From Escherichia coli (GTDB lineage Bacteria; Pseudomonadota; Gammaproteobacteria; Enterobacterales; Enterobacteriaceae), in NCBI RefSeq assembly GCF_003018255.1, contig NZ_CP027440.1: a stretch of 64,000 nt of DNA; one strand, written 5' to 3'. The notes beneath the pieces are model-generated. The model was not told where the DNA came from, ran no database searches, and saw only the letters and a list, made by a program, of their open reading frames with translations. Made by a program: the position numbers and the translations under genes. This document shows positions 56,801-60,106 of this stretch, piece after piece. Each line of letters opens with the position of its first letter. Within the stretch, counting starts at the first letter, position 1.

Positions 56801-57455
56801 CCGTCTTGAAGCTGCCCTGCGTACCACCCGACGCTGGTCGCTGGCAGATTTTCATTCTCTGTTTGTTAATCATCCCTTTACCCGTCTGGTTACCCAGCGA
56901 TTAATATGGGGCGTGTATCCGGCAAATGAACCGCGTCGTTTACTCAACGCCTTTCGTGTGGCCGCAGAGGGGGAGTTCTGCAATGCGCAAGATGAGCCCA
57001 TTGACCTGCCTGCGGATGCTCTGATTGGCATTGCCCACCCGTTAGAAATGACAGAAGGAATGCGCAGTGAATTTGCACAGCTTTTTGCCGATTACGAAAT
57101 TATGCCGCCTTTTCGCCAGTTGGCGCGGCGCACGGTGCTGCTCACACCTGACGAGTCAACCAGTAACAGCCTGACTCGCTGGGAAGGTAAATCCGCTACC
57201 GTTGGGCAGCTTATGGGAATGCGATACAAAGGCTGGGAGTCAGGCTATGAGGACGCATTTGTCTATGGCCTGGGCGAGTACCGGCTGGTCCTTAAGTTTT
57301 CACCCGGTTTTAACCACTACAATGTTGATAGCAAAGCGTTAATGAGCTTCCGTTCTCTTCGAGTGTACCGTGACAATAAATCCGTCACTTTTGCCGAACT
57401 TGATGTGTTTGATTTGAGTGAGGCGTTAAGCGCACCTGACGTCATTTTCCATTAA
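53823..57455 (+). CDS. yehI: Large DUF4132 protein YehI, paralog of MolR
   Basis: 1210 aa ORF; shared blocks with MolR (LRLRKHLSLAEES, AWDLFTAWQ.AGAP, GEMLRF). Confidence 0.8.
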   Translation: MDKELPWLADNAQLELKYKKGKTPLSHRNWPGEPVPVITENIIQTLGDELLQKAEKKKNIVWRYENFSLEWQSAITQAINLIGEHKPSITARTMAALACIAQNDSQQLLDEIVQHEGLEYATEVVIARQFIVRCYESDPLVVTLQYQNEDYGYGYRSETYNEFDLRLRKHLSLAEESCWQRCADKLIAALPGITKVRRPFIALNLPEKPEIANELVSLECSQTHFRSKEWLKVVADDPKAVKELARYWSQDIFSDREASYMSHENHFGYAACAALLREQGLAAVPRLAMYAHKEDCGSLLVQINHPQVIRTLLLVADKNKPSLQRVAKYSKNFPHATLAALAELLALKAPPARPGYPIIEDQKLPAQQKARDEYWHTLLQTLMASQPQLAEEVMPWLSTQARAVLNSYLSAPPKTVIDSTDNSQMPEILVSPPWRSKKKMTAPRLDLAPLELTPQVYWQPGEQERLASTESARYFSTESLAERMEQKSGRVVLQELGFGDDVWLFLNYILPGKLDAARNSLIVQWHYYPGRVEEIMNGWSSPEAQLAEQALRSGHVEVLINIWENDSYSRYRPEKSVWNLYLLAQLPREMALPFWLRINEKKHLSAGEDYFLSIFGLDALPGLLLAFSHRPKETFPLILNFGATELALPVARVWRRFAAQRDLARQWILQWPEHTATALIPLVFTKPSDNSEAALLALRLLYEQGHGELLQTAANRWQRTDVWPALEHLLKQSPIEIYPARMPKAPDFWHPLMWSRPRLIINHQLITDDALEIIGEMLRFTQGGRFHSGLEQLKTFCQPQTLAAFAWDLFTAWQQAGAPAKDNWAFLALSLFGDESTARDLTTQILAWPQEGKSTRAVSGLNILTLMNNDMALIQLHHISQRAKSRPLRDNAAEFLQVVAENRGLSQEELADRLVPTLGLDDPQALSFDFGPRQFTVRFDENLNPVIFDQQNVRQKSVPRLRTDDDQLKAPEALARLKGLKKDTTQVSKNLLPRLEAALRTTRRWSLADFHSLFVNHPFTRLVTQRLIWGVYPANEPRRLLNAFRVAAEGEFCNAQDEPIDLPADALIGIAHPLEMTEGMRSEFAQLFADYEIMPPFRQLARRTVLLTPDESTSNSLTRWEGKSATVGQLMGMRYKGWESGYEDAFVYGLGEYRLVLKFSPGFNHYNVDSKALMSFRSLRVYRDNKSVTFAELDVFDLSEALSAPDVIFH

Positions 57456-57516
57456 AAACACAGCGGGCAGTGATGCAACTGCCCGTTATCAACACGACTT
57501 ACCAGCGGGGAAAGCG

Positions 57517-57870
57517 ATGATCGTGCAAAAAGAGCTGGTTGCTATTTACGATTATGAGGTCCCTGTACCTGAAGATCCGTTTTCCTTCAGACTTGAGATC
57601 CATAAATGCTCTGAATTATTTACAGGTTCCGTCTATCGACTGGAGCGATTCCGGCTACGTCCAACATTTCATCAACGTGATCGAGAAGATGCTGACCCGC
57701 TAATAAATGATGCGTTGATTTATATAAGAGATGAGTGTATTGATGAGCGGAAATTACGAGGTGAATCACCTGAAACTGTAATAGCAATTTTTAATCGTAA
57801 ACTACAGAATATATTCAACCAACTAATAGAATATTACTTTATTAAAGGGGGAAGCGGTTTTCCCCCTTAG
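57517..57870 (+). CDS. yehK: Small uncharacterised protein YehK
   Basis: 117 aa ORF; its last codons run into the terminator hairpin shared with zorO. Confidence 0.65.
   Translation: MIVQKELVAIYDYEVPVPEDPFSFRLEIHKCSELFTGSVYRLERFRLRPTFHQRDREDADPLINDALIYIRDECIDERKLRGESPETVIAIFNRKLQNIFNQLIEYYFIKGGSGFPP
57844..57867. terminator. Bidirectional hairpin terminator shared by yehK (+) and zorO (-)
   Basis: Stem ggggga/tccccc with loop agcggttt; T-rich on both sides. Confidence 0.55.
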
Positions 57871-57889
57871 TTGCGTTTCAATTTGCCCA

Positions 57890-57979
57890 TTACTTCAACA
57901 AATCAATCAACCGTAACAGAGCCACTAATAGCTCCAGTACAGCAATGAGCACGGTTAACTTTTGTGTCAGCGTGTCCAT
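57890..57979 (-). CDS. zorO: ZorO type I toxin, 29 aa (MDTLTQKLTVLIAVLELLVALLRLIDLLK)
   Basis: Reverse complement of 57890..57979: SD aaggagag, ATGGACACGCTGACACAAAAG...TTGAAGTAA; matches ZorO as recalled. Confidence 0.85.
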   Translation of the reverse strand: MDTLTQKLTVLIAVLELLVALLRLIDLLK

Positions 57980-58160
57980 CCGCTCTCCTTATTAAGGAGC
58001 GCAACACCAGCACCTTACCCTTACACTGCCTGTCGACACTGGTTTACGTTTGTTGAGTCGCCATGTTGCACTCCGGATCAGAGCACTACCTGCGGCACCA
58101 CCCGTCCGGTAGCCAGGACTTGAAATGGGTTCGATCCGGCGCAACTTCCCAACAGTCAGG

Positions 58161-58211
58161 ATTATAAATCTCATTATCTTAATTGCAACACGGTCCAGCG
58201 GTGGTTATAAT
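58161..58211. promoter_or_regulatory. Divergent sigma70 promoters for zorO (-) and orzO (+) sharing one palindromic -35 hexamer
   Basis: + strand: -35 ttgcaa 58183-58188, 17 bp spacer, -10 tataat 58206-58211. - strand: -10 tataat (complement of 58161-58166), 16 bp spacer, same ttgcaa hexamer. Confidence 0.6.
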
Positions 58212-58217
58212 TCGTTC

Positions 58218-58304
58218 GTTGAGATGCCATGTTGCACTATCAGTAACTTAACATCAAAGTAGTAAATAAAAGAACCTGCCTCACCAGCAGGTTCTTTTAT
58301 TTTC
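58218..58304 (+). ncRNA. orzO: OrzO small RNA antitoxin (approximate ends)
   Basis: Starts about 7 nt after tataat; contains gccatgttgcact complementary to the zorO 5' UTR (plus-strand coordinates about 58060-58073); terminator aaagaacctgcctcaccagcaggttctttt plus T tract. Confidence 0.65.
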
Positions 58305-58497
58305 TGCGATCTACTTTCCAGATATTTTTCGCCAATAGCCCACCATAAATATTCACATCCCGGCCAAATAGTACGTTGATTATAAAATCGATGAATTTAT
58401 AAATAAAAATGAGTTATATGATGAATTAATAAAAACAGTAATCATTTTATTAAAGGGGGAAACGGTATTCCCCCTTAGATGCGTTTCAATTTGCCCG

Positions 58498-58587
58498 TTA
58501 CTTCAACAAATCAATCAACCGTAACAGAGCCACTAATAGCTCCAGTACAGCAATGAGCACGGTTAACTTTTGTGTCAGCGTGTCCAT
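58498..58587 (-). CDS. zorP: ZorP type I toxin, second copy, 29 aa
   Basis: Reverse complement of 58498..58587 encodes a peptide identical or near-identical to ZorO, with the same SD. Confidence 0.8.
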   Translation of the reverse strand: MDTLTQKLTVLIAVLELLVALLRLIDLLK

Positions 58588-58768
58588 CCGCTCTCCTTAT
58601 TAAGGAGCGCAACACCAGCACCTTACCCTTACACTGCCTGTCGATACTGGTTTACGTATGTTGGTACGAAACGTTGCTCTCCGGATCAGGGCACCGCCTG
58701 CGGCACCACCCGTCCAGCAGCCAGGACTTAAAATTGGTCCGATCCGGCACAACCTCCCAACGGGCAGG

Positions 58769-58819
58769 ATTATAAATCTCATTCACTGAATTGCAATGGA
58801 GTGTGGATATGGTTATAAT
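58769..58819. promoter_or_regulatory. Divergent promoters for zorP (-) and orzP (+), second module
   Basis: + strand: ttgcaa 58791-58796, 17 bp spacer, tataat 58814-58819. Confidence 0.55.
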
Positions 58820-58825
58820 TTATTC

Positions 58826-58909
58826 GTTGGTACGAAATGTTGCACAATCAGCAAGTTAGCGTCATTGTAGTAAATAAAAGAACCTGCCTCACCAGCAGGT
58901 TTTTTTATT
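58826..58909 (+). ncRNA. orzP: OrzP small RNA antitoxin (approximate ends)
   Basis: Contains ttggtacgaaatgttgcac, imperfectly matching gttggtacgaaacgttgc in the zorP leader; terminator aaaagaacctgcctcaccagcaggttttttt. Confidence 0.6.
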
Positions 58910-59017
58910 TACTGTGATCTGCTTTCCAGATATTTTTCGCTCAAACAACTAATGCGGCAAACATTTATTGCGCGTAAAATATCGTTTATTTCATTAATAC
59001 ATTTCAGGGATGAATAT

Positions 59018-60106
59018 ATGTCACCGCAGAATAATCATCTGCAGCGTCCGCCTGCCGCTGTGTTATACGCCGATGAACTGGCAAAATTAAAACAAAATGA
59101 TCACGCACCTTGCCCGCCCGGTTGGCAGTTAAGTTTGCCTGCGGCCCGCGCTTTTATCCTTGGCGATAGCGCGCAAAATATTAGCCGTAAAGTCGTGATC
59201 AGTCCCTCCGCTGTCGAACGCATGTTAGTCACTCTCGCTACCGGGCGCGGTTTGATGTTGGTGGGGGAACCTGGCACCGCAAAATCGCTCCTGTCTGAAT
59301 TACTGGCAACCGCTATTAGCGGCGATGCCGGGTTAACCATCCAGGGCGGCGCATCTACCACCGAAGATCAAATCAAGTACGGCTGGAACTACGCCCTGCT
59401 TATCAACCATGGTCCGTCAACGGAAGCGCTGGTCCCTGCCCCGCTTTACCAGGGAATGCGCGACGGCAAAATTGTCCGTTTTGAAGAGATAACGCGTACA
59501 CCGCTGGAAGTACAAGACTGTCTGTTAGGTATGCTTTCTGACAGGGTAATGACGGTGCCGGAACTCACCGGTGAAGCCAGTCAGCTCTATGCGCGAGAAG
59601 GCTTTAATATTATTGCCACTGCCAATACCCGCGATCGCGGCGTCAATGAGATGAGTGCCGCGCTAAAGCGTCGCTTCGATTTTGAAACCGTCTTTCCGAT
59701 TATGGATTTCGCCCAGGAGCTGGAACTGGTCGCCAGTGCTTCGGCGCGTTTGCTGGCCCATAGCGGTATTCCGCATAAAGTGCCTGACGCGGTACTGGAG
59801 TTACTGGTCCGCACCTTCCGCGATCTGCGTGCCAACGGCGAAAAGAAAACGTCAATGGATACCCTGACGGCAATTATGTCCACCGCTGAAGCCGTGAACG
59901 TGGCCCACGCAGTGGGCGTCCGCGCCTGGTTTTTAGCGAATCGCGCAGGTGAGCCAGCCGATCTGGTGGACTGTATTGCCGGAACCATCGTCAAAGATAA
60001 CGAAGAAGATCGCGCTCGTCTGCGCCGTTACTTCGAACAGCGAGTCGCCACACATAAAGAAGCTCACTGGCAGGCTTATTATCAAGCTCGCCACCGCCTG
60101 CCGTGA
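59018..60106 (+). CDS. yehL: MoxR-type AAA+ ATPase YehL
   Basis: ORF 58952..60106; start placed at ATG 59018 (MSPQNNHLQRPP...); Walker A GEPGTAKS, Walker B-like IVRFEEI. Confidence 0.8.
   Translation: MSPQNNHLQRPPAAVLYADELAKLKQNDHAPCPPGWQLSLPAARAFILGDSAQNISRKVVISPSAVERMLVTLATGRGLMLVGEPGTAKSLLSELLATAISGDAGLTIQGGASTTEDQIKYGWNYALLINHGPSTEALVPAPLYQGMRDGKIVRFEEITRTPLEVQDCLLGMLSDRVMTVPELTGEASQLYAREGFNIIATANTRDRGVNEMSAALKRRFDFETVFPIMDFAQELELVASASARLLAHSGIPHKVPDAVLELLVRTFRDLRANGEKKTSMDTLTAIMSTAEAVNVAHAVGVRAWFLANRAGEPADLVDCIAGTIVKDNEEDRARLRRYFEQRVATHKEAHWQAYYQARHRLP

Follow-up and report, generated by a model that had tools for sequence, protein, structure and literature searches.

Both zor/orz modules in the window, which is the whole stretch of 64 kb of Escherichia coli DNA that was analysed, carry their toxin and antitoxin promoters back to back around a single palindromic TTGCAA, which is read as a -35 hexamer on both strands. 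The hexamer is in register with a TATAAT box on either side, and two RNA polymerases probably exclude each other from it. A reading with about an even chance of being correct is that the common box and the exclusive binding impose a fixed ratio of initiations, biased toward the antitoxin, and that the two promoters interfere with each other only conditionally.

Identity of the locus

The locus is the zor/orz type I toxin-antitoxin tandem pair, which consists of two modules and was first described in E. coli O157:H7 (PMC2887945, PMC3919570). It is located between yehK (yehI) and yehL, as identified from the ORFs in the window and from the annotated homologous regions of O157:H7, K-12 and NT1F10. 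The genes of each module are, as the first-pass annotation had proposed, a toxin gene (zor, minus strand) and a divergent gene for an antitoxin sRNA (orz, plus strand). The zor toxin ORF of module 1 (57890..57979, minus strand) encodes a hydrophobic peptide of 29 aa, MDTLTQKLTVLIAVLELLVALLRLIDLLK. The zor ORF of module 2 (58498-58587), which together with its 174-nt leader (58588-58761) spans 58498..58761 on the minus strand and is of the EDL933 zorO type, encodes the same peptide, and this peptide is identical to ZorO of O157:H7. A search for distant zor/orz relatives on plasmids returns matches only to chromosome-like E. coli records.

Module 2 (58478-58935) is zorO/orzO of the EDL933 type, with 98.2% identity to the O157:H7 copy. 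The identity of module 1 is 88.6% to zorO/orzO and 90.9% to zorP/orzP of O157. Judging from these values, module 1 is a third variant, which is neither of the EDL933 O type nor of the P type despite its ZorO-identical peptide. The label 'zorO/orzO' that had been given to module 1 is therefore loose: its toxin and antitoxin are correctly identified, while its exact name does not hold. In module 1, the segment with the promoter and orz (58100-58320) matches an E. coli chromosome with 100% identity. The toxicity of Zor and its rescue by the cognate Orz have been determined experimentally for the EDL933 copies (PMC3919570). A GC-rich, terminator-like hairpin is located directly past the zor stop codon of module 1 (57845..57868), where it overlaps the end of an extended yehK-like ORF; it is assigned here to the minus strand, and the scan reports it on the plus strand.

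Architecture of the promoter core

The palindromic TTGCAA of module 1 occupies 58183..58188 and is assigned as the -35 hexamer of both strands from the sequence, from a promoter scan and from Table 3 of PMC11264685. On the plus strand, it is separated by a 17-bp spacer (58189-58205) from the orz -10 box TATAAT (58206..58211). On the minus strand, it is separated by a 16-bp spacer (58167-58182) from the zor -10 box (58161..58166), which appears as ATTATA in the plus strand and is TATAAT in the minus strand. The assignment of TTGCAA to zor is a prediction, here as well as in the published papers. The first-pass annotation had placed one palindromic TTGCAA between opposed TATAAT boxes with spacers of these lengths, and its coordinates are correct to the base. 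It had also stated that the layout recurs in the second module, and this is indeed the case at 58769-58819, where the 16/17 spacing is identical: the zor -10 box (58769..58774, minus strand) is separated by 16 bp from the common TTGCAA (58791..58796), which is separated by 17 bp from the orz -10 box (58814..58819, plus strand). The two -10 boxes of a module are separate elements with 39 bp between them. No hexamer other than TTGCAA gives TTG... in register on the two strands, and the perfect palindrome at this position is 6 bp long in module 1 and 8 bp long in module 2 (ATTGCAAT).

The exact 51-bp pattern is found twice in the 64-kb window and is not found in 100 dinucleotide-preserving shuffles. 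This result indicates that the 51-bp core is clearly not a product of chance. A consensus promoter scan of the region 57400-59300 detects only four sigma-70-like sites, which are the zor and orz promoters of the two modules. Each of these four promoters matches the consensus at 10 of 12 positions, and the TGn extension is absent from all of them.

A longer operator palindrome that would contain TTGCAA was considered and rejected, because the symmetry extends over no more than 6-8 bp and the flanking sequence is variable. No conserved operator to which a regulator could bind was found in the common region, and both spacers vary freely among 18 modules. A LexA box is absent from the zor/orz core, unlike that of dinQ. 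A non-palindromic regulator site may nevertheless be present in the core.

Transcripts and start sites

The zorO leader has been published to be 174 nt long, with the ribosome-binding site at +164..+169 (PMC5397157). When this start site is transferred to the window, the zor 5' UTR of module 1 covers 57980..58153 on the minus strand (174 nt, +1 = G at 58153), and the ribosome-binding site AAGGAG is located at the published position (57990..57985, minus strand). The zor +1 of module 2 is at 58761. Both start sites are 8 nt past the minus-strand -10 box, which occupies -13..-8 relative to the transferred +1. The distance from the zor -10 box to the ATG codon is identical in both modules of the window and in both modules of O157, and the transfer of the start site is therefore safe.

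The predicted +1 of orz is the G 7 nt past TATAAT, at 58218 in module 1 and at 58826 in module 2. The Orz sRNA of module 1 would thus extend over 58218..58302 on the plus strand (~85 nt) and end with a terminator stem (58275-58295) that is followed by a T-run; its assignment is based on Rfam, on pairing and on the K-12 homologue. The Orz sRNA of module 2 (58826..58908, plus strand) is of the EDL933 OrzO type and is assigned from Rfam and pairing, with a terminator detected in the scan. The Rfam family OrzO-P (RF02083, gathering score 60) matches 58225-58298 with 90.2 bits and 58833-58906 with 88.9 bits. A weak alignment of OrzO with the ohsC family of Rfam also starts at 58218, the predicted +1.

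Pairing with the zor leader begins at the first nucleotide of Orz. In module 1, Orz nt 1-21 form 20 of 21 pairs with one mismatch, and the target in the leader (58052-58072, minus strand) corresponds to zor +82..+102. In module 2, Orz nt 1-20 form 19 of 20 pairs, also with one mismatch, so that the pairing covers zor from +82 or +83 to +102 across the two modules. Membership in the zor/orz family has been defined by complementarity of the Orz 5' end to the zor 5' UTR over at least 15 contiguous nt, or over 17 nt with one mismatch (PMC11264685), and both modules of the window pair to this extent. OrzO has been published as acting via its 5' end. The pairing from nt 1 agrees with this mode of action and supports the assignment of the orz +1 to 58218 and 58826.

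Mapped RNA ends lead to the same site. E. coli K-12 retains an orz-only remnant with an identical 51-bp core, including both -10 boxes. The dRNA-seq table of K-12 (Romero 2014, PMC4681348, Table S2) gives 2202424, in older coordinates, as a forward start site. When an offset of 1978 bp between the coordinate versions is added, which was computed in this study and may be off by 1, this site corresponds to 2204402 in NC_000913.3 and is the G 7 nt past TATAAT. A Term-seq 3' end is located at 2204485, which is 84 nt downstream of the orz start (Adams 2021, PMC7815308). This distance agrees with the northern band of Orz of ~85 nt (PMC2887945). Both zor and orz are active in vivo: primer extension has mapped, and northern blots have detected, both RNAs (PMC2887945). 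The start sites of zor and orz are 65 bp apart in both modules. Mapped start sites inconsistent with the two -10 boxes, which would have refuted the reading of the first-pass annotation, are not seen; both boxes fit the mapped starts.

Conservation of the core

Eighteen unique intact modules were compared, from E. coli genomes and from Escherichia sp. MOD1-EC7003, Escherichia sp. E1V33 and E. whittamii. The modules outside E. coli were found with a degenerate DNA pattern for residues 8-19 of ZorO and are therefore independent of the promoter; all four of them carry ATTATA-16-TTGCAA-17-TATAAT. Among the 18 modules, TTGCAA is unchanged in 17 and the orz -10 box in all. Variation affects one of 18 alignment columns in the hexamers and 20 of the 33 spacer columns (Fisher p = 1e-4). 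One E. coli module carries TTGCAG, the sole variant of a hexamer, which alters position 6 of the orz -35 but position 1 of the zor -35. The spacer lengths of 16 and 17 bp are constant in 18 of 18 modules, even though an indel is located just outside the core. The pattern reads as the footprint of functional promoter elements that are held in fixed register on both sides. The length of the 16-bp zor spacer is fixed while its sequence varies, which suggests that its register with TTGCAA is being kept.

These elements are already present in the literature. Among the papers on zor/orz (Fozo et al. 2010, PMC2887945; Wen et al. 2014, PMC3919570; Wen et al. 2017, PMC5397157; Shore et al. 2024, PMC11264685), the study of 2014 marks predicted -35 and -10 elements by boxes (Wen et al., Figure 1A), and the starts have been mapped by primer extension. 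Table 3 of Shore et al. 2024 gives TTGCAA as the -35 and TATAAT as the -10 for both Zor and Orz. The conservation of TTGCAA in that study is 99.4% for zor and 99.4% for orz over 2,439 loci, and 99.7% and 99.7% in orz-only loci. The equal values for the two genes are as expected if a single hexamer has been counted twice. The searchable text of these papers contains no statement of a single common -35 or of polymerase competition, nor an experiment in which one promoter rises when the other is weakened. A full-text phrase search for 'shared -35' wording yields nothing relevant, which is weak evidence. A 2025 review states that the regulation of zor/orz is still to be worked out (PMC11951105). 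The promoter elements are thus already known, and their sharing is implicit in the literature and undiscussed in its searchable text; the competition mechanism is an addition of the first-pass annotation. The consequence of the common -35 is a modestly interesting hypothesis.

Probable exclusive binding and its possible consequence

The zones from -40 to +10, which have been used as polymerase contact zones in the overlap criterion of Bendtsen et al. 2011 (PMC3167631), overlap by 16 bp between zor and orz (58178-58193), and the footprints from -55 to +20 overlap by 46 bp (58163-58208). The first-pass annotation had proposed that the two polymerases are mutually exclusive, and this is a sound structural inference from the 65-bp spacing of the starts and the 16-bp overlap. 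Binding of two polymerases at once would be excluded because sigma region 4 needs the same six base pairs whichever way the polymerase faces, and because the starts are only this far apart.

The core would then work as follows. Polymerase would dock in either of two orientations around one palindromic -35, at two sigma-70 promoters that stand back to back. When docked rightward, it would use the 17-bp spacer and TATAAT to initiate the ~85-nt Orz RNA at 58218; when docked leftward, it would use the 16-bp spacer and TATAAT to initiate, at 58153, the zor mRNA, whose 174-nt leader is self-inhibitory. A seated polymerase would keep the other polymerase out for as long as it is bound. The two promoters would form a compact, unregulated pair in which each initiation is a choice of direction, and the ratio of toxin to antitoxin initiations would be set by the spacer lengths (17 versus 16 bp), by the G at -14 of orz, by the flanks and by the initial transcribed sequence. 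Without a regulator on one side, a fixed partition of initiations is expected rather than a switch. Cross-inhibition, by which one promoter goes up when the other goes down, would appear only at high occupancy, and high occupancy is possible given two consensus -10 boxes.

The cues for relative promoter strength that can be read from the sequence conflict. In favour of orz are the optimal 17-bp spacer, the G at -14 and the AT-richness of the upstream flank, while the spacer of zor, with AT at 13 of 16 positions as opposed to 5 of 17 in the GC-rich orz spacer, would favour zor. Orz is abundant in exponential phase (PMC2887945), the orz start is the only one that the K-12 table of start sites gives for this intergenic region (PMC4681348), and ZorO has been reported to be undetectable from a single native copy. 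These observations suggest that Orz dominates at steady state, with RNA levels reflecting a mixture of promoter strength and RNA stability. A bias of initiation toward orz would be consistent with them.

Whether exclusive binding becomes visible as interference depends on occupancy. In the model of Bendtsen et al. 2011 (PMC3167631), interference depends on the fraction of time for which a promoter is occupied, and not on overlap or strength as such. Warman et al. 2026 (PMC12825309) detected no competition at basal activity in five of five bidirectional promoters and strong competition once one -35 had been improved. The zor and orz promoters are much nearer to the consensus than these five, and competition is therefore possible. 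There is about a one-in-three chance that a knockout of the orz -10 box raises zor initiation by at least 2-fold.

A built-in toggle, by which the common -35 makes toxin and antitoxin transcription anticorrelated, was suggested by the first-pass annotation, and it could act in bulk, in single cells or in both. It is a reasonable hypothesis in a well-known class, that of polymerase interference at overlapping divergent promoters, and is considered unlikely to describe zor/orz; in its strong form, as hard-wired anticorrelation, it is likewise unlikely. Exclusive binding follows from the geometry, both promoters have perfect -10 boxes and 10 of 12 consensus positions and are on paper stronger than the weak bidirectional promoters that do not compete, these did compete after improvement of the -35 (PMC12825309), and overlapping-promoter switches such as mtrR/mtrCDE and lambda PR/PRM are known. 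However, theory ties interference to the occupied fraction of time and not to overlap alone (PMC3167631), and with no one-sided regulator a change in free polymerase would shift both promoters in the same way. Homologous systems also manage without a toggle, as the dinQ -10 box is 14 bp from TTGCAA and the promoters of shoB and ohsC are ~70 bp apart, and ZorO is controlled mainly after transcription, by leader structure, by processing and by pairing with Orz (PMC11264685, PMC5397157). If the two promoters share the hexamer at low occupancy instead, they would be independent neighbours, and the sharing would be a by-product of compaction and common descent with no regulatory consequence. This is a doubtful explanation that nevertheless deserves weight. 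Both discriminators have a C two bases past the -10 box (TCG... and CCT...), which fits such independence. A C at that discriminator position, which is contacted by sigma region 1.2, tends toward short-lived open complexes. The same core is present in dinQ/agrA with the toxin side out of register, so that the layout predates dual use, and the five bidirectional promoters tested at basal activity show no competition (PMC12825309). Against independence, the zor-side length of 16 bp is invariant over a varying sequence, by which the register is kept, and near-consensus promoters are usually highly occupied.

The two promoters might also rise and fall together, so that the ratio of toxin to antitoxin is protected rather than inverted. 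Occlusion or mutation of the hexamer would hit both promoters, and negative supercoiling behind a departing polymerase would help the other promoter to open. With one hexamer, both promoters necessarily have the same target, and bacterial promoters have been reported to stimulate divergent transcription reciprocally (10.1101/2020.01.31.928960). In the TTGCAG variant, the altered base is position 6 when read for orz, where conservation is weak, and position 1 when read for zor, where it is high; this is the safe direction. One variant is an anecdote, however, and coupling through supercoiling has usually been studied over larger separations; such positive coupling is quite improbable. Least of all is it expected that the zor promoter works without a -35 element, by its strong -10 box and AT-rich spacer, with TTGCAA unused by zor and nothing in common between the promoters. 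An AT-rich spacer such as that of zor can offset a missing -35 (PMC12825309), and the homologues dinQ and tisAB lack a good -35. The 16-bp register is nevertheless strict in 18 of 18 modules, the zor side has no TGn extended -10, and the published annotation gives TTGCAA to zor (PMC11264685), so that this explanation is very improbable. The preferred reading is that of a common box with exclusive binding, a fixed orz-biased ratio and conditional interference.

Occurrence of the layout in phage contigs

Phage contigs were scanned for ATTATA-N(10-24)-TTGCAA-N17-TATAAT, and at least 120 loci were listed. Among the matches listed, 22 distinct sites have a left gap of 17 bp, as compared with ~6 sites per off-register gap, where each off-register bin counts two configurations. 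In a control scan with a right gap of 12 bp, no symmetric 12/12 sites are found among the matches listed. According to a rough estimate from the matches listed in both scans, the class that is in register on both sides is ~3.6 times commoner than independence predicts, and one protein family drives much of this excess. Many of the 17/17 sites carry a TGn extended -10 on one or both sides, and ~10 of them are located between a gene for an Arc-like repressor of ~50 aa and a divergent gene for an HNH or GIY-YIG homing endonuclease. The 17/17 sites were also considered as plain inverted repeats, and this was rejected, because the complementarity of their spacers (2-8 of 17 positions) is at chance level. 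The recurrence of the design outside zor/orz lowers its uniqueness, and it hints at a small, unnamed class of promoters with a common -35.

Implications

One short DNA segment can serve both directions through a symmetric -35 as well as through a symmetric -10. A coincident palindromic -35 might define a distinct, direction-choosing class of promoters beside the class with a common -10; in zor/orz it would fix the ratio of toxin to antitoxin initiations, make single initiation events exclude each other and generate anticorrelated bursts. The probability of this is considered low. If it is true, anticorrelated bursts of zor and orz could seed cell-to-cell differences in toxin expression, and the recurrence in phages between genes for Arc-like repressors and homing endonucleases would suggest a reusable device rather than a one-off. 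If the common -35 truly couples the promoters, it would be the first link at the level of transcription between a type I toxin and its antitoxin. Otherwise, the core amounts to two constitutive promoters, compactly arranged and well conserved, which are already annotated.

Comparison with known systems

The homology of the dinQ/agrAB locus of E. coli K-12 to zor/orz covers the entire module (score of 219 in a global alignment, as compared with 104 +/- 11 for shuffles), and the leaders are 63% identical over 152 nt. The dinQ/agrA part of this locus has the same back-to-back core, CAGG-TTATAA...TTGCAA...17 bp...TAGCAT (agrA), with starts ~64 bp apart. Unlike zor, however, dinQ has its -10 box (TATAAC) only 14 bp from TTGCAA, so that the toxin promoter is out of register with the hexamer. 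In addition, the dinQ start carries an inserted LexA operator, by which the toxin is under SOS control, whereas zor/orz has no LexA box. At agrB, TTGCAA-17-(-10) is kept while the divergent toxin promoter is absent, which indicates that conservation of TTGCAA does not need dual use.

The shoB/ohsC and tisB/istR-1 systems are similar to zor/orz in that a toxin mRNA with a long leader is divergent from a short sRNA that pairs by its 5' end. The shoB promoter (GTGACC-18-TAAAAT) is ~70 bp from the TTGTAA of ohsC, so that its -35 is separate, unlike that of zor/orz. An overlapping -35 for shoB (TTTACA-16-TAGCAT on the minus strand, over TTGTAA) was considered and rejected in favour of this published promoter. 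The tisAB promoter has no assigned -35 and that of IstR-1 is TTGCGC, and hence the -35 is not common in this system either. Relatives work without a common -35, and sharing is therefore not needed for this kind of system. By this comparison, TTGCAA is first of all the -35 of the antitoxin, and the toxin is predicted to be in register with it only in zor/orz among these relatives.

In E. coli, ~14% of promoters overlap with one that reads in the opposite direction (Bendtsen et al. 2011, PMC3167631). In tail-to-tail overlapping promoters (Bendtsen 2011; lambda and P22 PR-PRM, P22 Pant-Pmnt, mtrR-mtrCDE), the footprints overlap and a bound polymerase represses the other promoter, as in zor/orz. 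[quoted passage not shown] P22 PR/PRM has crossed -35 boxes at a distance of 4 bp, and its starts are separated by 53 bp, as compared with 65 bp in zor/orz, and in P22 Pant/Pmnt the -10 box of one promoter lies over the -35 box of the other with starts ~37 bp apart. In PR/PRM, Pant/Pmnt and mtrR/mtrCDE, each promoter has a -35 box of its own and the balance is tipped by a regulator, whereas the hexamers of zor/orz coincide and no regulator is evident. A conserved operator, by which such repressor switches are recognized, is not evident in the zor/orz modules compared, and zor/orz does not fit this type.

The bidirectional promoters of Warman and Grainger are similar to zor/orz in that symmetry lets polymerase bind in two mutually exclusive orientations, and the same question of competition arises for both. 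Their common element is the -10, with starts 10-23 bp apart, whereas that of zor/orz is the -35. Separate divergent promoters are excluded from this bidirectional class (PMC12825309), and zor/orz, with starts 65 bp apart and two -10 boxes 39 bp apart, falls outside its definition. The exact coincidence of the two -35 boxes in zor/orz is a particular point on the known continuum of overlapping divergent promoters.

Retention, variation and disruption of the zor/orz promoter core

The 51-bp core, in which TTGCAA is the predicted −35 hexamer of both the zor and the orz promoter, is kept complete in the orz-only remnant of E. coli K-12 located between yehK and yehL (L002:1540-1600), including a zor −10 that is no longer followed by an ORF. 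If the zor promoter of this remnant fires, it would drive antisense transcription into yehK. No reverse start at this promoter is listed in the one K-12 transcription start site table that was consulted. A natural variant of this hexamer, TTGCAG, is found in the middle module of the three-module E. coli strain NT1F10 (L003:2421-2471). For orz, this change falls on position 6 of the hexamer, which is weakly conserved; for zor, it falls on position 1, which is highly conserved.

Loss of yehL-yehQ is associated with IS1 insertions in two E. coli strains (L012:1342-1440 and L011:1533-2230), such that yehR comes after IS1. In the former, the IS1 junction lies at the orz −10, so that orz is destroyed and the zor −10 and TTGCAA remain intact. 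In the latter, IS1 is located downstream of an intact orz-only module.

The yehK-like ORF of the window (57517-57870) encodes 117 amino acid residues, as compared to 105 for its K-12 counterpart, and is annotated as 'hypothetical protein' in the strains with the same layout. This ORF extends as far as the base of the hairpin (57845-57868) of the zor terminator, and therefore its 3' end overlaps the terminator region of the toxin gene.

Symmetric arrangement of the motif in phage contigs

The phage contigs (L020-L139) were scanned for the motif together with a comparison scan, and the counts refer only to the matches listed, which include at least 22 sites of the 17/17 type. Among these matches, ATTATA-17-TTGCAA-17-TATAAT is several-fold commoner than the off-register spacings (examples at L132:124-175, L032:2282-2333 and L076:282-333), and TGn extended −10 boxes are frequent at the 17/17 sites. 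Approximately 10 of the 22 listed sites are located between a gene for an Arc-like RHH repressor (phrog_3180/582) and a divergent gene for a homing endonuclease of the HNH or GIY-YIG type.

Comparison with ohsC and dinQ/agrA

The predicted duplex between Orz and zor RNA of module 1 (58218-58238 versus 58052-58072) contains 20 paired positions out of 21; position 7 is an A-A mismatch, and position 8 pairs as G-U. This duplex conforms to the published '17 with one mismatch' rule, but not by a wide margin to the '15 contiguous' rule. The Rfam ohsC_RNA model weakly matches the window within 58218-58302, with 35.4 bits, which is below the gathering score of 50, overlapping the OrzO-P hit. The first 20 nucleotides of Orz and OhsC are visibly alike (GTTGAG...TG.TGCAC). 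Sequence similarity thus suggests that the orz and ohsC antitoxins are of common ancestry.

When the whole K-12 dinQ/agrA module (L016:1206-1650) is aligned with zor/orz (57890-58305), the score is 219, as compared to 104 ± 11 for shuffles. The dinQ/agrA module differs from zor/orz in that the LexA operator of dinQ appears as inserted sequence at the start site of the toxin transcript, and in that the toxin-side spacer of dinQ is shorter than that of zor by 2 bp, because of which TTGCAA is out of register for dinQ.
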